Part shown: positions 1,892 to 31,558 of the stretch, piece after piece
How the letters are laid out: each line of letters opens with the position of its first letter
How positions within the stretch are numbered: the stretch's first letter is position 1
Assembly (NCBI GenBank): GCA_045629645.1
Contig: JAZQRR010000027.1
Location: 25,968 to 89,967 of the forward strand
DNA from: Candidatus Enterousia sp.
GTDB taxonomy: Bacteria; Pseudomonadota; Alphaproteobacteria; Rs-D84
Length of the DNA: 64,000 bases
Direction of reading: 5' to 3'
Program-made: the position numbers and the translations under genes
The notes under the pieces: generated by a model
Seen by the model: only the letters and a program-made list of their open reading frames with translations
Told to the model about the DNA's origin: nothing
The model's database searches: none

Positions 1892-4318
1892 TTAATCCAT
1901 TGCGCCTTGTTTTTTCAGGTATTCATTAACAAAATTATTACCATAAATTTTATATAATTCTTCGGCCAACAAAACAGAAGAACGTCCAGATTCAAACAAT
2001 CTTAACATATTCCCCAGTCCGCCCAATTCTGTATTTAAAATAACAGATTCATTATTTACAGGTCTGGACAACAGTAATGCACGTTTTAAATTAGGATACG
2101 CCTTGCCTTGAATAAAGGCCATTTCCAACGGATTTAAATTCCAATGCGCATAATCATTTACCTCGGCTGCTGGATTTCTAAAGAATAATATTGTCTGTGC
2201 CTGACCACGAACAACGTCACCAATCCCCAGTTTATCCAGAATATTTGCGCGCTGAAACGCTGCCATATACGCCTGACGATTTTTTCTACCTTCTTGTAAA
2301 CCAGTAATAAAACTGTCACGGAACATTTTATTTTCCAGCATTGGTGCAGTTTCGTCAATCATAATCAGCGATGGATTTCCACCGGCCACCGTCGTATTGT
2401 TAATTCTGTGTAAGATATAAGAAATAACTGCTGGCGCTAAAACTTCATCTTGTAAAATATCTGTAAAATCAAACGTTGTTAATCTGGATTGTAAATCCAA
2501 AGTATCAGTTATTTCATTAAACATATCACCATACTGTAATGGGTCTATCCACTTTTTTAACGCGGGTCGCATATTTCCTGTGGAAGAAAAACAACTTTCC
2601 CACAAATTTTTCAACAATCTGTCTTTATCGGATAAATAATCAAAATTAACAGATACAGCACGTGCAATTTCATCGGCAGATTCAACATCATTCTGCCCAG
2701 AAATAATTGCGAACCAGCGTCTTAAAAACGCACGATTTGCGGCACTGTCTGGCATTTTTAGTGGATTTAAGTGTGTCAAGAAAGACTGTGCCATTGGGTC
2801 TGTATTTTTTTCTTTCCCCTGCATAGTAATATACTTACCGCCCACCGCCATTGTAAATATTTCCGCGCCTTTGTTTCTATCAAAGAAAAAAGCTTTTAAC
2901 TTAGGATGTCTTAAACTTTGCGCAATCAAGAACGAGAACAAAGTTGTTTTACCACCACCTGTTGGACCGATTGTTAAAGTATGTCCCACCGCGGCCGGCG
3001 CATCAGAAACATGGAATTGGAACATATACGGTGTACCTTGGGCAGTTGGGAAAACAACCAATGGTCCTGGCCCCCAATCTGAATTTTCAACACCACGTGG
3101 CTGTGTTGACATTGGAATACTGACGGCAGCTGTCTTGGATAACAATTTAAAACTGCGTGGAAAAACATCAAACCCTGGAATCTGTGCGAACCAAGACACC
3201 TTGGCTGCGAACGTTTCTACAATAGGAGAAACCCCGAACGAAGCGGAAATTTTCTTAAAATCATCTATTGATTTTTGTAATTCTTTTTCAGAATCACCAT
3301 ACAGAACAAATAAAGGATAATAGTTAACCATACTCTGATTTCCAGAAACATTTTCATCCATAACAGATTCTGCGGCACTAATTTGTTCTTCGGTTGATTT
3401 TTGTTTTTCATCTGCGGTTGAACGTCTTTGTCGCAAAGTTGTTTCAATATCGGCCTGCCCCATGATATGAAAAGCGTTCATTGTAACCATTTCACATTGA
3501 ATTGTTGATATAGTATCAAAAAATTCTTCATCCAAATAATCCGGAGAAGTTTTAAAAGACAACATTGCAGAATATTGTTTTTGTGCGCCACTGATATACT
3601 TCACCCAACCATCTTTCAAAAATTCCACATCATCAACAGTTGTTAAACTTGCGATATCATTATCTGCTGTTTTTGGTTCTGGTTTTGAAACAGGAGATAA
3701 AATTCTGCCGAAAAATTTCGCCATATTATCTGTTGTTTTATTTTTCAACACTTGTGGTTTATAAGCAGCCAACATAGATTCAATATAATTTCCATATTTA
3801 TTTAATTTTGCACGTGCATCAACACCAGAAACGGACATAACAATATAATAACTATTTGTAAAAATTTTTAATCCTTGTCCTTGCCATTTATCATATATTT
3901 TCTGCAATGTTGGCTGATTAAATTCATATTTTGTCTGTTCTGCTATTTCATCGCGCACCATAAAGAATCGCAAAATAACCCCAGTATCACGAATTTGATT
4001 AAATAATTGTGCACGCAAATCCAAGAATTTTTCACGTGTTTGATTATCTTGCATACTGGTTTGAACCCCTGCCACGCGATAAACACGTAACAAAGTACCA
4101 TCTGTCAACGACATAGAATTATCATCAAAAACTGTATCAAAAGGTAAAAAACTTGAATATTTAGCATATCCAAATTTTGGGAAAATTTTCTTGCCCAGCA
4201 CAGGCACATACAGCATCAGCATAATAAAAACAAACAAAACAACCATCACCATGACGGTCAAAGTAATTGGGAATCCACTTCCTGCAAAATAATCAAAAAA
4301 ATCATGTACATTTGTCAT
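1892..4318 (-). CDS. virB4: Type IV secretion ATPase VirB4/TrbE
   Basis: 808 aa with an N-terminal TM segment and the Walker A motif GPTGGGKTT. Length and layout are typical of VirB4. It overlaps virB3 by 4 nt (ATGA). Confidence 0.9.
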   Translation of the reverse strand: MTNVHDFFDYFAGSGFPITLTVMVMVVLFVFIMLMLYVPVLGKKIFPKFGYAKYSSFLPFDTVFDDNSMSLTDGTLLRVYRVAGVQTSMQDNQTREKFLDLRAQLFNQIRDTGVILRFFMVRDEIAEQTKYEFNQPTLQKIYDKWQGQGLKIFTNSYYIVMSVSGVDARAKLNKYGNYIESMLAAYKPQVLKNKTTDNMAKFFGRILSPVSKPEPKTADNDIASLTTVDDVEFLKDGWVKYISGAQKQYSAMLSFKTSPDYLDEEFFDTISTIQCEMVTMNAFHIMGQADIETTLRQRRSTADEKQKSTEEQISAAESVMDENVSGNQSMVNYYPLFVLYGDSEKELQKSIDDFKKISASFGVSPIVETFAAKVSWFAQIPGFDVFPRSFKLLSKTAAVSIPMSTQPRGVENSDWGPGPLVVFPTAQGTPYMFQFHVSDAPAAVGHTLTIGPTGGGKTTLFSFLIAQSLRHPKLKAFFFDRNKGAEIFTMAVGGKYITMQGKEKNTDPMAQSFLTHLNPLKMPDSAANRAFLRRWFAIISGQNDVESADEIARAVSVNFDYLSDKDRLLKNLWESCFSSTGNMRPALKKWIDPLQYGDMFNEITDTLDLQSRLTTFDFTDILQDEVLAPAVISYILHRINNTTVAGGNPSLIMIDETAPMLENKMFRDSFITGLQEGRKNRQAYMAAFQRANILDKLGIGDVVRGQAQTILFFRNPAAEVNDYAHWNLNPLEMAFIQGKAYPNLKRALLLSRPVNNESVILNTELGGLGNMLRLFESGRSSVLLAEELYKIYGNNFVNEYLKKQGAMD

Positions 4319-16319: not shown

Positions 16320-16353
16320 TACCTTGTCGGCAGGTATCTGTTTTGTAATAATA

Positions 16354-16386
16354 AAGGCCGTCAAATGACGGCTTTTATATTTTTAT
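16354..16386 (+). terminator. Rho-independent terminator after rplT
   Basis: GCCGTC-AAAT-GACGGC hairpin followed by a T-rich tract. Confidence 0.6.
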
Positions 16387-16401
16387 AATTAATCTGGGGT
16401 A

Positions 16402-20579: not shown

Positions 20580-23500
20580 TTACACCTTTTTTACAGATAA
20601 TGACAGATTGTATCCATCTATTTCAGTATTGTATTCACCATCACCAGATACGATTTCAACAATCAATGCATCACGCATAATACGATTTTTATGCTGTTCA
20701 ATTGCGCTTGCCAACGCAGGGTCTGCATTGTATGTCAAAACGATTCGGTCTGATACATCCAAGCCTGCTGTTTTACGTGTGTCTTGGATAAAGCGCAACG
20801 CATCATTTGCCAAGCCTTCGGCAATCAGTTCTGCGTTTAATTCTGTATCCAGTACAACAACGGCTGTATTATCTGGCAGTGCGGCCCCGGTAATACCGTC
20901 TTTAACCGTCAGGCGATTTTCAAATTCATCGCTGTTCAGTTCGTATCCGCCCGCCAATAATTTATCGCCTGTGATTTGATATTCATTGCGTTTTACGGCC
21001 GGGATAATATCTTTTAACGCCCCGCCCAAACGTGCACCAATTTTTGGTGTAATCAGGTACACAAAACTGTCTGCAACATTTGAAATATCAGAATCAAATT
21101 TAACAGATTTAACATTTAATTCGTCTTTGATAATTTCTGCGTATTCTGGCATATTTGCGCCCGCCACAGTCAAAGAATTTAATGGCAATCGATTGCGCAG
21201 TTTGTATTGTTCGCGCAATTGTTTTCCGGTTGACACGATTGATTGTACGCGGCGCATATCTTCGACGATTTTCGCATCAAATTCATCAGCAACCGGCCAA
21301 TCTGTTAGATGCACAGATTCATTACCCGTTAAATTGCGATAGATATATTCAGAAATAAATGGTGCGAACGGTGCCAATGCTTTGCACAGCCCTGTCAGTA
21401 CTGTATAAAGCGTATCAAAAGCATCTTGTTCTTCGTCCCAGAAGCGTGCACGACCACGTCTGATATACCAGTTATTCAAGATATCCAAGAAACGAACAAA
21501 TTCTTTGATTGCCACATCTGGTTTATATTCGTCCAACGCAGATTTTACGGTCGCAACCAGAACATTTAATTCTGCCAAGATATATTTATCCAATGGTTTT
21601 TCTGGATTTTTTATATTCTTTGCGACAACGTTTCCTGCGTTTGCATACAGTGTAAAGAAGTGATATGCATTCCACAGTGGTGTTTGAACAGTTTTTGTTG
21701 ATTCAACAAAAACTTTACCTTCTTTATCAACAGGTACAGGTTCTGCTTTCATAAAGTTTGAACCCAATATAAACAGGCGTACAGCATCAGCGCCATATTG
21801 TTCGATTTGTTCTGTTGGGTCAACAAAGTTTCTTAATGATTTAGAAAATTTCTTTTTGTTTTCATCAACAACCATACCGTTTGCAGAAACAGACATAAAT
21901 GCTGGTTTATCAAACAATGCAGTTGCCAGAACCATCAACGCATAGAACCAACCGCGTGTTTGGTCTTGACCTTCGATAATATAATCTGCTGGGAAAGACG
22001 CATTAAATCTATCTACGTTTTCAAAAGGATAGTGCAAAGATGCCCATGGCATAGAACCACTTTCCACCCAACAGTCCAAAACATCAGGGATACGTTTCCA
22101 ACCATCTTTGGTTAACTTGTCCAATGTTGGGCGGTGTAAATCAGAAATGGTTACACCAAAGAATTCTTCCAGTTCTGCGATTGAACCAAATACTTTGAAT
22201 TCACCATCTTTTTCCCAGATTGGCAATGGCATACCCCAGAAACGGTTACGTGAAATTGACCAAGGACGTGCACCTTCTATCCACGAACGGAAACGTTCGC
22301 CGGCACTGGTCCAGTTAACCTTGGCGTTATTTGCCAACAGTTTGTCTTTGATTTTTGGCACATCGATATACCAAGAATCTGTTGCACGATAAATCAGTTT
22401 TTCTTTACTGCGATCACCAAATGGATAACTGTGTTTATATTGTTCTTTTTTGACCAGTTTTCCATTTTGTTTCAGCCAATCCAGAATGCGTGGTGTTGCG
22501 GCAAATATATTTTCGCCAGCAAAATCAACAACAGTATTGTCAAAGTTGCCATAGTCATCAACGTTTAACAAAACAGGGAATTTTGCATCAATATTTTTTG
22601 CTGCCCAAAAGTCGTCTGCCCCATATGCAGGTGCAATGTGAACAATACCTGTACCATCGCCATCTGATACATAATCAGCAGGTATAACTTGGAACAATAA
22701 ATCAGACTGTCCCGCATAGTATGGGAACAATGGTTTATAGTGTAATCCTGCCAATTCAGAACCTTTTACACGACCAATTTCTGTTGCGTTTGCGAATTGT
22801 TTTTCATATGCCTTTAATCGGCTTGCTGCGATTATATATACGGCCCCATCAGTGTCTTGCATACGCAGATATTCCATATTTGGGTTCACAGCCAACGCAC
22901 TGTTTGCAGGTAATGTCCATGGTGTTGTTGTCCATGCGATAACACGGTCGCCATTTTCCAGTTCAAACCAAACTGTTACGGCATCATCAACAATTTCACG
23001 ATAGTCTTGTGATGCTTCGGAATTTGAAACAACCGTACCATTTACCCAGTCGTATGGGTTTACGCTGTAATCTTTGTACAACAAACCTTTTTCATACAAA
23101 GACTTTAATGTCCACAGCATAGATTCCATATAGTTTTTATTCATGGTTTTATAACCATATTCATCACCAATTTTTACCCAACGCCCCATACGTTCAATAA
23201 ATCTATCCCATTCATTTGTGTATGTCATAACATCTGTTCTGCACATATCACAGAATGCATCGATACCATCATCTTCAACGATATTTTTGGCAGATTTACC
23301 CATCTTTTTTTCAACAGAATTTTCCGCAGGCAATCCATGACAATCCCATCCCAGTTCACGATTAACAAATCGTCCGTTCATTGTCTGGAAACGTGAAATC
23401 ATATCTTTTACAACCGTTACACCTAAATGTCCCCAGTGTGGCAAACCGTTTGCAAAAGGAGGACCATCATAGAAATTAAAAGGCTGACCTTGTTTTGTTT

Positions 23501-23603
23501 TTTCCAAGGTTTTTCCAAAAGTATTATTTTCACGCCAATATTCCAACACCTGCTGTTCCAGTGCGGTAAAATCTGCACGTATATCTGTTTTTGGGTATGC
23601 CAT
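20580..23603 (-). CDS. ileS: Isoleucine--tRNA ligase, type 2 (eukaryote-like)
   Basis: 1007 aa. FYDGPPFANGLPHWGH is the type-2 form of the HIGH region, and a KFSKS motif is present. Confidence 0.95.
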   Translation of the reverse strand: MAYPKTDIRADFTALEQQVLEYWRENNTFGKTLEKTKQGQPFNFYDGPPFANGLPHWGHLGVTVVKDMISRFQTMNGRFVNRELGWDCHGLPAENSVEKKMGKSAKNIVEDDGIDAFCDMCRTDVMTYTNEWDRFIERMGRWVKIGDEYGYKTMNKNYMESMLWTLKSLYEKGLLYKDYSVNPYDWVNGTVVSNSEASQDYREIVDDAVTVWFELENGDRVIAWTTTPWTLPANSALAVNPNMEYLRMQDTDGAVYIIAASRLKAYEKQFANATEIGRVKGSELAGLHYKPLFPYYAGQSDLLFQVIPADYVSDGDGTGIVHIAPAYGADDFWAAKNIDAKFPVLLNVDDYGNFDNTVVDFAGENIFAATPRILDWLKQNGKLVKKEQYKHSYPFGDRSKEKLIYRATDSWYIDVPKIKDKLLANNAKVNWTSAGERFRSWIEGARPWSISRNRFWGMPLPIWEKDGEFKVFGSIAELEEFFGVTISDLHRPTLDKLTKDGWKRIPDVLDCWVESGSMPWASLHYPFENVDRFNASFPADYIIEGQDQTRGWFYALMVLATALFDKPAFMSVSANGMVVDENKKKFSKSLRNFVDPTEQIEQYGADAVRLFILGSNFMKAEPVPVDKEGKVFVESTKTVQTPLWNAYHFFTLYANAGNVVAKNIKNPEKPLDKYILAELNVLVATVKSALDEYKPDVAIKEFVRFLDILNNWYIRRGRARFWDEEQDAFDTLYTVLTGLCKALAPFAPFISEYIYRNLTGNESVHLTDWPVADEFDAKIVEDMRRVQSIVSTGKQLREQYKLRNRLPLNSLTVAGANMPEYAEIIKDELNVKSVKFDSDISNVADSFVYLITPKIGARLGGALKDIIPAVKRNEYQITGDKLLAGGYELNSDEFENRLTVKDGITGAALPDNTAVVVLDTELNAELIAEGLANDALRFIQDTRKTAGLDVSDRIVLTYNADPALASAIEQHKNRIMRDALIVEIVSGDGEYNTEIDGYNLSLSVKKV

Positions 23604-23629
23604 AACAAAATGCTCCGTTTTTTTATATT

Positions 23630-23649
23630 AAAAAAAGGCGCCACGCGCC
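23630..23649 (-). terminator. Intrinsic terminator inside the ileS leader (candidate attenuator)
   Basis: The minus strand reads GGCGC-GTG-GCGCC followed by 7 T, ending 26 nt upstream of the ileS ATG. Confidence 0.6.
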
Positions 23650-23677
23650 CCAGCCACCGCAGAAGCGCAGTTGCCGT

Positions 23678-23710
23678 TTATTTAATAATAATTATTGTTT
23701 GTGTTTTCAT
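23678..23710 (-). CDS. Candidate ileS leader peptide MKTQTIIIIK
   Basis: A 10-codon mini-ORF with four consecutive Ile codons (ATA ATT ATT ATT). It lies between a promoter-like element and the leader terminator. Confidence 0.5.
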   Translation of the reverse strand: MKTQTIIIIK

Positions 23711-23718
23711 CACGATAG

Positions 23719-23747
23719 ATTCTACACCGTATTTTTTGAAAATGCAA
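23719..23747 (-). promoter_or_regulatory. Sigma70-like promoter of the ileS leader
   Basis: The minus strand reads TTGCAT-17 nt-TAGAAT. The -10 ends 8 nt before the mini-ORF ATG. Confidence 0.4.
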
Positions 23748-23800
23748 GTATTGTCTTTACAGCTTAATAAAAGATAATGTTGTGAAATCTTGTAAAAGAT

Positions 23801-23829
23801 AAAAAATCCCCGTCTGGGGATTTTTTTTA
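23801..23829 (-). terminator. Rho-independent terminator after tRNA-Thr
   Basis: TCCCC-loop-GGGGA hairpin flanked by A and T runs. Confidence 0.65.
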
Positions 23830-23833
23830 TTTC

Positions 23834-23909
23834 TGGTGCCGGTGACAGGACTTGAACCTGCGACCCCCTCATTACGAATGAGATGCTCTACCAGCTGAGC
23901 TACACCGGC
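23834..23909 (-). tRNA. tRNA-Thr (anticodon CGU)
   Basis: I folded the cloverleaf by hand. Acceptor GCCGGTG/CACCGGC, D arm GCTC-AGCTGGTA-GAGC, anticodon loop TTCGTAA, T arm GCAGG-TTCAAGT-CCTGT, and an encoded CCA. Confidence 0.9.
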
Positions 23910-29218: not shown

Positions 29219-31203
29219 TTGTATTCATCCCCGATATTATAAGATGCGTCTAATTCAATAATTTGTGTGTCATCGTCATTTACGCCGATTTCTGCGCCAC
29301 TGCACATCATGCCGAACGATTCTATACCTGCAACAGTGCGCTGGGCCAATGGTTTTTTTACACCTGGTAATTTTGCGCCAACCGGTGCCAAAACCCCACG
29401 TAAACCAACACGTACATTTGGTGCGCCACATACGATTTGAATATTTTCGTCGCTGCCCGTGTTCACAGACAGAATATGCAAATTATCGCGTTCTGGGTGA
29501 TTTTTTACATCAACAATTTCTGCAACGGTCAGTTTTGGTGAATTATCGACTTGTTTTGGTGTGTGCTTTTCGGTCAGTTCTGCAATCTTGGCATCATCGA
29601 TACGATTGAACAAGTTTTCCGGCACGATAAATTCATCACCATCGTTAATACGATGTTCGTATGATTTTGGCCAAGACAAATCATGTGCATTTACAAAAAC
29701 ATTTTGCATTTTTTCTGCGGCACTTGGGATTATTGGTGCAGACACGCGTGCAAACAAATCAATCATTTGCATACATTCATTTAATACAGCCCCTGCCCCC
29801 GCTATATCGCCATTTTTAATCATTGCCCATGGTTCCATTTTGGTCATATATTCATTTGCAATTGCGTATAAACCGCGCAGTGCCGCGATTGATTTACGGA
29901 ATTCACATGCTTCCAATGCAGATGTTAATTCAGATATTTTTTCATTGATTTGTGATTCCAGTTCTGGATTTTTTTCACCAGCGTTTGGAACGTTGTTACC
30001 AAAATTTTTCTGGGTTAATTTGCAAACGCGTGATACGAAATTTCCAAGCATTCCGTTCAGGTCTTTATTTACAATATCTGCGAAACGTGCAACTGTAAAA
30101 TCTGTATCATCTGTTTCTGGTGCGCTTGCCATCAGTGCATAACGCCAGCAATCCGCGGGTGCATCATTGATTGCCTCGTTCAAGAATATTCCGTTACCTG
30201 TTGATTTTGAAATCTTGGCACCATTAAAATTCAAGAAATTAAATCCCTTTAATATATCAACTGTTTTCCAGTTGTCGTTCATCGCCAATTCTTGGGCGGG
30301 GAAAAATATAGAATGGAACGATACATTATCTTTGGCCATAAATTGGGCATATTTTACATCGTCACCACCATGCCACCAATCGGCCCAGTTTTCATTTGCC
30401 GCCTGAGATATTGAAACATATCCCCATGGCGCATCGAACCAAACATAGAATACTTTGTTTTCATAACCTGGTTTATTAACAGGAATCCCCCATTTTAAAT
30501 CGCGTGTGATGGGGCTGTCGTGCAAACCTTCTTCCAGCCATTTATTTGCGATTGCCAATGCGGTTTTTGACCATCCGACGCGTGAATCAATCCATGCGCG
30601 TAATTTATCCTGCATGGCGCTGGTTTTGAAATACAAGTGTTTTGTTTCGCGCATTTCAACAGGAGATGTTGGATCGACTGCACTGTGTGGGTTTATTAAT
30701 TGTTCTGGTTCCAGTGTTGCGCCACATTTTCCGCATTCGTTACCATATGCTCCGTCAAAACCGCATTTTGGGCAAGTGCCGATAACATATCGGTCTGCCA
30801 GAAACATATTTTCGTTAATTGAATATGGTTGCATAGATGCTTTTTCAACAATCATATTTTCTTGTTCCAGACGCAAGAATAACGCTTGGATTAAATCCTG
30901 GTGTTTTTGTGTATGTGTACGGCCATATATATCAAATGACAAATTAAAGTCGCGAACAGATTGTTCGTGTGCCTGACGGTATTTATCAACATATTCTTCC
31001 ACGGGCATATTTTCTTTTCTGGCACCGACTTCGCTGGTTGTACCGTGTTCATCAGCCCCGCAAACATATAAAACATCACGCCCCATTGCGCGACAAAAGC
31101 GCGCATAAACATCCGATGGTAACCAGCATCCAACCAAATGTCCAATATGCAAATTGTTGTTAACATACGGTAATGCAGATGTAATTAAATATTTTTTTGC
31201 CAT
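29215..31203 (-). CDS. metG: Methionine--tRNA ligase with a C-terminal tRNA-binding (Trbp111/EMAP-like) domain
   Basis: 662 aa with PYVNNNLHIGHL (HIGH), KISKS, a CPKCG...CGKCG zinc knuckle, and a C-terminus similar to the PheT N-terminal tRNA-binding domain. Confidence 0.95.
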   Translation of the reverse strand: MAKKYLITSALPYVNNNLHIGHLVGCWLPSDVYARFCRAMGRDVLYVCGADEHGTTSEVGARKENMPVEEYVDKYRQAHEQSVRDFNLSFDIYGRTHTQKHQDLIQALFLRLEQENMIVEKASMQPYSINENMFLADRYVIGTCPKCGFDGAYGNECGKCGATLEPEQLINPHSAVDPTSPVEMRETKHLYFKTSAMQDKLRAWIDSRVGWSKTALAIANKWLEEGLHDSPITRDLKWGIPVNKPGYENKVFYVWFDAPWGYVSISQAANENWADWWHGGDDVKYAQFMAKDNVSFHSIFFPAQELAMNDNWKTVDILKGFNFLNFNGAKISKSTGNGIFLNEAINDAPADCWRYALMASAPETDDTDFTVARFADIVNKDLNGMLGNFVSRVCKLTQKNFGNNVPNAGEKNPELESQINEKISELTSALEACEFRKSIAALRGLYAIANEYMTKMEPWAMIKNGDIAGAGAVLNECMQMIDLFARVSAPIIPSAAEKMQNVFVNAHDLSWPKSYEHRINDGDEFIVPENLFNRIDDAKIAELTEKHTPKQVDNSPKLTVAEIVDVKNHPERDNLHILSVNTGSDENIQIVCGAPNVRVGLRGVLAPVGAKLPGVKKPLAQRTVAGIESFGMMCSGAEIGVNDDDTQIIELDASYNIGDEYK

Positions 31204-31335: not shown

Positions 31336-31455
31336 TGGTGGGTGGTATTGGACTGGTCTTGCGACCGCACAGGCGCAAATCGGCGGTGCCGACCGCGATA
31401 CCCCCGTATCGCTTTTGCTGGTTGTCGAACCAACACTGTTGGTTCTTCGTCCAAT
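31336..31455 (-). repeat. Split and inverted partial copies of the tRNA-Val T-arm and 3' end, enclosing a 70-nt GC-rich insert
   Basis: 31336-31354 is identical to 31482-31500 (19 nt: CCA, acceptor 3' strand and T-stem). 31425-31434 is identical to 31500-31509 (T-stem 5' strand plus T-loop). 31438-31455 is an inverted T-arm-like copy. 31355-31424 is conspicuously GC-rich and contains hairpins. Confidence 0.8.
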
Positions 31456-31481: not shown

Positions 31482-31558
31482 TGGTGGGTGGTATTGGACT
31501 CGAACCAACGACCTTTACGATGTCAACGTAACGCTCTAACCAACTGAGCTAACCACCC
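31482..31558 (-). tRNA. tRNA-Val (anticodon GAC)
   Basis: I folded the cloverleaf by hand. Acceptor GGGTGGT/ACCACCC, anticodon stem TTACG/CGTAA with loop TTGACAT, T arm GTTGG-TTCGAGT-CCAAT, and an encoded CCA. Confidence 0.9.

Follow-up and report, generated by a model that had tools for sequence, protein, structure and literature searches.

A candidate isoleucine-codon leader-peptide attenuator upstream of ileS in Candidatus Enterousia

Leader-peptide attenuation is textbook knowledge for biosynthetic operons. Among the genes of aminoacyl-tRNA synthetases, pheST is, to our knowledge, the only established case, trpS and leuS being predicted ones, and all synthetase controls characterised so far that we know of (the T-box, the pheST attenuator, and the thrS operator) are homeostatic. 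The pheST attenuator is cited as a gammaproteobacterial example, the predictions for trpS and leuS concern Streptomyces, and ileS, the gene for isoleucine-tRNA ligase, carries T-boxes in Firmicutes and, as a translational variant, in Actinobacteria (PMC1262725). In Caulobacter crescentus, an alphaproteobacterium with many leaderless mRNAs, ribosome profiling revealed translated coding sequences (CDS) designated "ileS leader CDS (CCNA_03934)" and trpS leader CDS; no mechanism was examined (Schrader et al. 2014, PMC4117421). The subject of this paper is the leader of ileS in a stretch of 64,000 nucleotides from Candidatus Enterousia sp. (assembly GCA_045629645.1, contig JAZQRR010000027.1), the whole of which is termed the window in the following. 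Enterousia is placed in the order Rs-D84, a group of bacteria with genomes of less than about 1 Mb and no amino-acid biosynthesis (PMC12306168).

The leader, which is located on the minus strand, is very probably an Ile-codon leader-peptide (ribosome-mediated) transcription attenuator. It combines a short open reading frame (ORF) in the 5' leader between promoter and gene, an enrichment in cognate codons that is conserved at the level of codons, a predicted intrinsic terminator between ORF and gene, and an antiterminator that is mutually exclusive with this terminator. That such an attenuator would operate in the homeostatic direction we regard as reasonably probable, with less assurance than the attenuator itself.

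The conserved reading frame and its 5' context

The leader mini-ORF (23678-23710, start codon at 23710) has the sequence ATG AAA ACA CAA ACA ATA ATT ATT ATT AAA TAA and encodes the peptide MKTQTIIIIK in 10 sense codons. Its stop codon TAA is located at 23680-23678, 74 nt upstream of ileS, and the four Ile codons ATA ATT ATT ATT, the putative regulatory codons, occupy positions 23684-23695. The mini-ORF had been recognised, together with a terminator, in a preliminary description of the locus made from the sequence alone; all coordinates given there were verified on the minus strand, and those of the mini-ORF are exact. The same description had staked its reading on a conservation of the Ile-run ORF and the terminator in relatives, and this conservation was found: in 78 of the 79 usable species-level loci, a mini-ORF of the form M-x4-I-I-I-I-(K/R)-stop precedes ileS by about 100-120 nt. 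These loci were obtained with the isoleucyl-tRNA synthetase (IleRS) protein as query, which led to 80 loci from species-representative genomes, fetched with 3-kb flanks; all 80 belong to Candidatus Enterousia or to alphaproteobacterial metagenome-assembled genomes from animal guts, with IleRS identities of 75-93%. Among the IleRS homologues, all matches listed are at least 83% identical, and the survey of leaders thus covers the Enterousia clade.

A codon table was built on the 43 distinct nucleotide versions of the mini-ORF. At the last three Ile positions (codons -2 to -4) isoleucine is encoded in all 43 versions, by ATT, ATA, or ATC, and all changes are synonymous. At the first Ile position (codon -5) it is encoded in 41 versions, the exceptions being one Val and one version with three Ile codons. 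The last sense codon specifies Lys or Arg in 41 versions, Gly and Gln also occurring, and is the only codon between the Ile run and the stop, a gap that does not vary among the 78 species. TAA serves as the stop codon in 42 versions and TGA in one, the start is ATG in all but two, which have GTG, and the length is 10 sense codons in 40 versions and nine in three, insertions and deletions comprising whole codons. Codons 2-5 are free to vary, with six to nine amino acids per position. The conservation of the cognate codons alone, with change only in the third position, is the signature of a regulatory leader peptide, as opposed to a functional protein or an RNA with a purely structural role. The first Ile codon (23695-23693) is ATA in 41 versions and the later ones are mostly ATT, by which the leader would sample both the AUA-reading (lysidine-type) and the major tRNA-Ile; ATA is not a rare codon in this genome, where it accounts for 32% of the Ile codons.

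Strings of four Ile codons occur only nine times in the window, counted in any frame and on both strands, two of the nine being the leader site and its own reverse complement, and a run of four isoleucines was not found among the 13,844 codons of the real genes of the window. A covariance model of the leader detects exactly one copy per ileS locus and has no significant match elsewhere in the window or in the 790 kb of fetched DNA; the only other match listed, on the metG leader of locus L090, is not significant (25 bits, E 0.73). By its sequence, the arrangement is conserved across the whole genus-level clade. The sole locus without the mini-ORF is L073 (positions about 2940-3000), in which tRNA-Thr is followed by a plain terminator and, about 20 nt further on, by ileS. 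In locus L017 (about 2890-3000) the leader is kept, and about 90 extra nucleotides with AAGTTCA-type repeats are located between the terminator and ileS. A longer in-frame ORF of 64 amino acids (23872-23678) was considered and rejected because of its overlap with the tRNA-Thr gene and the lack of conservation in its upstream part.

Directly upstream of the mini-ORF a promoter-like element is located (23719-23747), which consists of TTGCAT (23747-23742), a 17-nt spacer, and TAGAAT (23724-23719) and ends 8 nt before the ATG. Across 52 loci, 7-10 nt separate the start codon from an upstream element TTGnnn-17-TAnnnT, in which the spacer is 17 nt long without exception. The promoter proposed in the preliminary description is thus supported by its position and its conserved spacing and is not supported by a consensus promoter scan, which did not call it because the -35 hexamer fits the consensus at only three of six positions. 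A -10 element that ends 7-10 nt before the AUG would place the transcript start at the AUG or a few bases from it and leave no room for a Shine-Dalgarno sequence, which implies that the mini-ORF would be leaderless or nearly so where the element precedes it. In 20 loci without this element, the 3' end of tRNA-Thr is located 10-20 nt before the mini-ORF start, and from the existence of these two contexts it follows that the leader stays with ileS regardless of what is upstream. In the present genome the upstream neighbour of the leader is likewise tRNA-Thr(CGU) (23834-23909, minus strand; called by ARAGORN and Rfam), but a terminator-like hairpin found by the terminator scan (23801-23826, minus strand) closes the tRNA unit and makes the ileS leader a separate transcription unit.

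Predicted terminator, antiterminator and protector hairpin

The predicted intrinsic terminator (T, the "3:4" helix; 23630-23650) has the form GGGCGC-GUG-GCGCCU followed by U7. Its core GGCGC-GUG-GCGCC (23649-23637) and the seven U (23636-23630), which end 26 nt before the ileS ATG, are exactly where the preliminary description had placed them, and the terminator scan independently finds the hairpin and the T-run. In relatives, a GC stem of 5-7 bp is located 17-37 nt before ileS, a run of five to eight U is present in nearly all loci, and the distance between the end of the mini-ORF and the U-run is 42-47 nt. The pairing of T amounts to 96.8% in the MAFFT alignment and to 99.3% in the alignment made with the covariance model, and C-G to U-A changes occur on both sides of the stem.

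An alternative pairing that would sequester the 5' arm of the terminator had been proposed in the form of eight pairs between UGCGCUUC (23669-23662) and GGGGCGCG (23651-23644). This proposal is well supported, since these pairs form in 95.4% of cells and a matched triple change is found in three loci (L024, L033, and L046), in which a change of GCGC to GCAC in segment 2 is accompanied by GCGC to GUGC in segment 3 and GCGC to GCAC in segment 4. As the changed base of segment 2 is located in the loop of the protector hairpin in the other fold, only the antiterminator explains its change. RNAfold extends the helix by two inner G-C pairs and a GGUG loop to an energy of -14.8 kcal/mol. The resulting antiterminator (AT, the "2:3" helix; 23644-23670) pairs CUGCGCUUCUGC (23670-23659) with GCUGGGGCGCG (23654-23644) and excludes the protector hairpin as well as T.

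The putative protector hairpin, designated H_A (the "1:2" helix; 23652-23675), consists of the 5' arm GGCAACUGC (23675-23667), the loop GCUUCU (23666-23661), and the 3' arm GCGGUGGCU (23660-23652). Between the stop codon and the first base of H_A there are 3 nt in the window and 0-4 nt across the relatives, and some of its bases are shared with AT. The copy in the window has an energy of -9.8 kcal/mol, the median across 60 leaders is -11.2 kcal/mol, and variants such as GGUAAC/GUUGCU (L041) and GGCAGC/GUUGCC (L055) keep the pairing. In most relatives, the stretch from the stop codon to the terminator folds at minimum energy into H_A plus T.

The hierarchy of energies, for which the preliminary description had pointed to the two alternative folds, was computed on 61 distinct leaders. 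AT is more stable than H_A by at least 2 kcal/mol in 95% of them and beats T alone in 98%, and the combination of H_A and T beats AT in 98%. This predicted order is the 1:2 / 2:3 / 3:4 ladder of classical attenuators. In minimum-free-energy folds of the nascent RNA, before the 3' arm of the terminator emerges, the 5' arm of T is sequestered in 90% of the leaders. Direct-path refolding barriers, estimated for nested structures only, are about 14 kcal/mol from H_A to AT and about 10.6 kcal/mol from AT to H_A plus T, and with barriers of this height the helix formed first should outlast the fraction of a second in which the polymerase crosses the terminator. In these models H_A likely competes with AT and makes termination the default.

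Ribosome position, direction of control and alternative explanations

In the proposed mechanism, transcription would start at or a few bases from the AUG of the mini-ORF or, in some relatives, the mini-ORF would be carried on the tRNA-Thr transcript instead, and the speed of the ribosome through the four Ile codons of M-x4-I-I-I-I-K-stop would report the level of charged tRNA-Ile. With no ribosome near the end of the ORF, H_A would form first and then T, and transcription would stop after about 80 nt. A ribosome whose leading edge invades H_A would free the 5' arm of AT, which could then capture the 5' arm of T and allow RNA polymerase to continue into ileS, and slow decoding of the last Ile codons would hold the ribosome at the ORF's 3' end while the choice between the folds is made. 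Low Ile-tRNA would then lead to more ileS transcription, a homeostasis that fits an organism unable to make amino acids. The conserved ORF with its codon pattern, the terminator, and the competing pairings with their energies can be read from the sequences; that the ORF is translated, that transcripts end at T, and in which sense the system responds are inferences.

In an occlusion test on 60 distinct leaders, p nucleotides after the stop codon were held open. The energy of H_A changes from -11.2 (p = 0) to -7.5 (p = 4) and -4.4 kcal/mol (p = 7), whereas that of AT remains at -15.8 kcal/mol up to p = 8, is -11.5 kcal/mol at p = 10, and becomes weaker than that of T only at p of at least 11. 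A ribosome with its A site on the fourth Ile codon (Ile4), the Lys codon, or the stop codon opens R-6, R-3, or R nucleotides, respectively, R being the number of bases shielded past the A-site codon, and the critical GCGC of AT starts 9-11 nt after the stop codon in all leaders. With R = 11-13, a stall on Ile4 would weaken H_A and spare AT, and a terminating ribosome would block AT, which is the homeostatic logic; the equilibrium model gives a probability of T, P(T), of about 0.4 at Ile4 and Lys and of 0.9-0.96 at the stop codon for 11-13 nt of shielding. The direction predicted by equilibrium occlusion is reversed when the shielding is raised from 9 nt to 11-13 nt. In the preliminary description, a ribosome at the stop codon was to occlude the alternative helix 9 nt further on and one stalled on the Ile run was not; this logic is marginal, as it works if at least 11 nt are shielded and fails at 7-10 nt. 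The anatomy of an attenuator tuned to Ile codons has thus been upheld, but the switch as first formulated, without the third helix H_A, has not.

Ribosomes are expected to shield about 7-10 nt 3' of the A-site codon, judging from toeprints, footprints, and the spacers of frameshift sites, and the resulting geometry is one of several points that speak against a homeostatic attenuator of this kind. In the models with R = 7-10, an Ile stall would leave H_A almost intact (-11 to -9 kcal/mol for stalls on Ile1 to Ile4), and a ribosome at the stop codon would melt H_A and leave AT free, by which fast translation would give readthrough and slow translation termination, the opposite direction. The equilibrium model with 9 nt of shielding places the lowest P(T), 0.49, at the stop codon. 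The last Ile codon ends 6-10 nt before H_A and does not overlap this protector helix, whereas the cognate codons of the trp, his, and phe leaders overlap theirs. Homeostasis would require either shielding of at least 11 nt or a polymerase pause that outlasts fast ribosomes. The remaining points concern start codon and structure. The GTG start found in three loci is poor for leaderless initiation. The pairing of H_A, counted column by column, is 75-77%, also after covariance-model realignment, which bettered the measures for the whole structure and left H_A at 77%; this low value is due to shifts in the register of the 5' arm, and a column-wise covariation analysis of H_A on the MAFFT alignment gave no signal above shuffled controls. 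The triple compensatory change may be one evolutionary event, and the sequences are closely related, so that the conserved energies are not independent observations. With regard to timing, a polymerase moving at 50 nt per second, a ribosome at 15 codons per second, and release at about one per second have been used in a kinetic treatment (PMC1183508); arithmetic with these rates brings ribosome and polymerase out near-level over the 81-nt leader, with a dwell of about 1 s at the stop codon. A polymerase pause that lets unhindered ribosomes finish and leave would result in homeostasis even with a normal footprint.

The same geometry is the basis of an alternative that we consider unlikely, arrival-dependent antitermination. 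Here H_A plus T would be the default, and only a ribosome that has passed the Ile codons and stands on Lys or the stop codon at the time the polymerase traverses the terminator would melt H_A and allow AT to form, so that plentiful Ile-tRNA would switch ileS on and slow decoding would switch it off, a feed-forward control. It agrees with the energies at 7-9 open nucleotides after the stop codon (-4.4 to -3.5 kcal/mol for H_A, -15.8 to -14.6 kcal/mol for AT), with the position of the critical GCGC just beyond the standard ribosome footprint, with the opening of H_A by 1-3 nt at most on an Ile-codon stall, with the minimum of the equilibrium P(T) at the stop codon for 9 nt of shielding, and with the near-level movement of ribosome and polymerase and the dwell of about 1 s at the stop. 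The barrier of about 14 kcal/mol from H_A to AT would make H_A a kinetic trap, but this estimate leaves out loop-mediated (pseudoknotted) strand invasion. Moreover, less charged tRNA-Ile would lead to less IleRS, a positive feedback on an essential enzyme and contrary to the synthetase controls known, and the fixed one-codon distance between Ile run and stop in 78 species would be left unexplained. If this reading were true, the direction would be opposite to that of every known synthetase control, in a host-dependent bacterium with a genome of less than 1 Mb; we doubt that ileS is gated feed-forward by Ile-tRNA and that, together with the metG leader described below, mini-ORF attenuators of the leaderless or tRNA-linked kind could serve the lineage as its main amino-acid sensor. 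The homeostatic direction of the Ile-codon attenuator is ranked first because all characterised synthetase controls are homeostatic, because a positive feedback loop on an essential enzyme would be difficult to sustain, and because the fixed one-codon gap between Ile run and stop points to the importance of where the stalled ribosome stands with respect to H_A.

Much less probable is an arrest by the nascent peptide, in which the C-terminal I-I-I-I-K/R would delay release at the stop codon from within the ribosome, much as TnaC and SpeFL do. The delay, possibly triggered by a small molecule such as free isoleucine, would keep H_A open in favour of AT. The conserved residues are indeed the last five, the last of them is basic in 41 of the 43 distinct ORFs, a ribosome at the stop codon occupies the position most favourable to AT, and a purely synonymous pattern of change would be expected from conserved residues as well as from conserved codons. 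However, a 10-residue peptide barely reaches the exit tunnel, the last position also accepts G and Q, an induction of ileS by high isoleucine makes little sense, and four identical cognate codons in a row are the hallmark of classical codon sensing; we know of no arrest motif like IIIIK.

An RNA-only element with an incidental mini-ORF (a riboswitch, a T-box-like sensor, a protein or small-RNA site, or a second tRNA-Thr terminator behind an AT-rich spacer) would agree with the near-invariance of GGUGGCUGGGGCGC at the nucleotide level, with the UGG in the loop, as in T-box antiterminators, and with the plain terminator at the same position in L073, which has no ORF, yet it is highly improbable, as it does not account for the pattern by codon position, the preservation of start and stop codons, and the insertions and deletions of whole codons, as the terminator is located downstream of a conserved promoter in 52 loci, as a leader of about 80 nt is too short for a T-box, and as UGGC would pair with a G discriminator, where tRNA-Ile is expected to have an A.

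Rfam was searched for known RNA families. A scan of the whole window at gathering scores gave two tRNAs only and no leader family, riboswitch, or T-box, and an E-value scan of 23590-23840 gave nothing significant on the minus strand, with no T-box up to E 10. The insignificant matches on this strand are rimP (E 0.5 and 9.1) and a Phe_leader fragment of 15.8 bits (E 3.2) over the tRNA terminator; on the opposite strand Phe_leader reaches 30.4 bits, under its threshold of 55. A T-box, a known riboswitch, and a known leader family were rejected on the basis of these scans. The leader also has no equivalent of Stem I of a T-box.

Neighbouring features and relation to known systems

The putatively regulated gene ileS (20580-23603, minus strand, ATG at 23603) encodes an isoleucine-tRNA ligase of 1007 amino acids (TIGR00392, E 7e-233). 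It is preceded by the Shine-Dalgarno sequence GGAG (23613-23616), 9 nt before the ATG, which recurs in most relatives. The presence of PF19302 indicates that the product is probably of the eukaryote-like IleRS2 type; with the models of the mupirocin-resistant MupA and MupB it scores about 600 bits, far under their cut-offs. Some IleRS entries in databases are longer (1013-1031 amino acids), which suggests that gene callers run upstream into the leader region. Gene callers overlook the 10-codon ORF and the terminator, and some of them lengthen ileS instead.

A second leader is located upstream of metG (ATG at 31203, minus strand). It contains the mini-ORF MMIRMQI-stop (31309-31286), a terminator GGACGCC...GGCGUCU with U8 (31258-31230), and an alternative helix between CAACGGG (31272-31266) and CCCGUUG (31251-31245). 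The core ATG CGA ATG CAA is kept in six metagenomic relatives, in five of which ATY TAA comes next, so that the conserved core is M-R-M-Q-I with one conserved internal Met codon. In locus L081 the helix covaries from AACGGG/CCCGTT to AACAGG/CCTGTT. Six other relatives, about half, lack the leader. Its antiterminator arm is located 14-18 nt after the stop codon and there is no protector hairpin, which makes it uninformative as a geometric calibrator. The metG leader supports the existence of mini-ORF leaders at synthetase genes in this lineage, more weakly than was assumed in the preliminary description: the parallel drawn there between the two genes is sustained by the leader itself and by one covarying set of pairs, but "Met-rich" does not describe a frame with a single conserved internal Met codon that about half of the relatives lack. 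About 125 nt past the tRNA-Val gene, just before the metG leader, the last 19 or so nucleotides of this tRNA (AGTCCAATACCACCCACCA) occur a second time (31336-31354 versus 31482-31500, minus strand), which has the appearance of a partially duplicated tRNA or of a scar left by integration; a second tRNA at this repeat was not called by ARAGORN. The gap between rplT and pheS (16321-16401, plus strand), which corresponds to the position of the pheM attenuator in E. coli, has terminator-like hairpins at about 16321-16337 and 16357-16372, the latter followed by a T-rich run, and a seven-codon ORF MTAFIFL-stop with two Phe codons (16365-16388) that overlaps the 3' arm of the second hairpin.

No description of leader-peptide attenuation of ileS was found in the literature searched, a search that did not extend to a 2010 survey of synthetase operons. 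This survey of attenuation by Lopatovskaya, Seliverstov and Lyubetsky (Mol Biol 44:128), of which we know from a reference list, may list ileS already. The novelty claimed for ileS in the preliminary description has to be toned down, since a translated "ileS leader CDS" had already been named in Caulobacter. An Ile-codon leader at ileS would extend attenuation to a gene that is under T-box control in other phyla. The host belongs to a gut lineage with reduced genomes, so far uncultured, in which amino-acid biosynthesis and most regulators have been lost, and the leader suggests how such organisms may still sense the supply of amino acids. The occurrence of the same leader behind two different 5' ends, a leaderless-type promoter and a processed tRNA transcript, provides a natural comparison of initiation timing in attenuation, and the placement of the codons upstream of helix 1, with an antiterminator just past the footprint of a terminating ribosome, is a geometry that bears on the direction of control.

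When the ileS leader is compared with described systems, the resemblance to CCNA_03934 of Caulobacter consists in a small translated CDS upstream of an alphaproteobacterial ileS, a comparison by position and name. The T-box at ileS has in common with it the gene, the expected signal (the charging of tRNA-Ile), and the choice between terminator and antiterminator, but it pairs directly with uncharged tRNA and has no ORF, whereas the leader has a coding signature. The pyrBI and pyrE attenuators of E. coli resemble the arrival-dependent alternative in that a ribosome following the polymerase prevents the terminator; they sense nucleotide-dependent pausing of the polymerase, and their leader ORF runs into the terminator, whereas the ORF upstream of ileS ends 42-47 nt before the U-run and carries cognate codons. 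The trp, his, leu, thr, and ilv attenuators resemble the leader in its predicted set of mutually exclusive 1:2, 2:3, and 3:4 helices, in a run of cognate codons, in a terminator before the first gene, and in a 2:3 helix that is more stable than either neighbour alone and less stable than both together. In contrast to them, the ileS leader would control a synthetase instead of a biosynthetic operon, in a host without amino-acid biosynthesis, and its ORF has only 10 codons, with Ile codons ending 6-10 nt before helix 1. In trpL the critical bases of the antiterminator are located about 3 nt after the stop codon, compared with 9-11 nt here. The closest mechanistic relative is the pheST attenuator of E. 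coli with its leader ORF pheM, which has the same cognate-codon leader ORF, alternative hairpins, terminator, synthetase operon, and dependence on ribosome position. The two differ in amino acid and gene and have no sequence similarity, pheM has a normal 5' untranslated region whereas the ORF upstream of ileS is leaderless-like or follows a tRNA, and the regulatory codons of the latter are located upstream of the first helix and not inside it. The ileS leader would thus be a known kind of control on a gene for which it has hardly been described, and its unusual features are the leaderless or tRNA-linked ORF, the regulatory codons upstream of helix 1, and a host without amino-acid biosynthesis.

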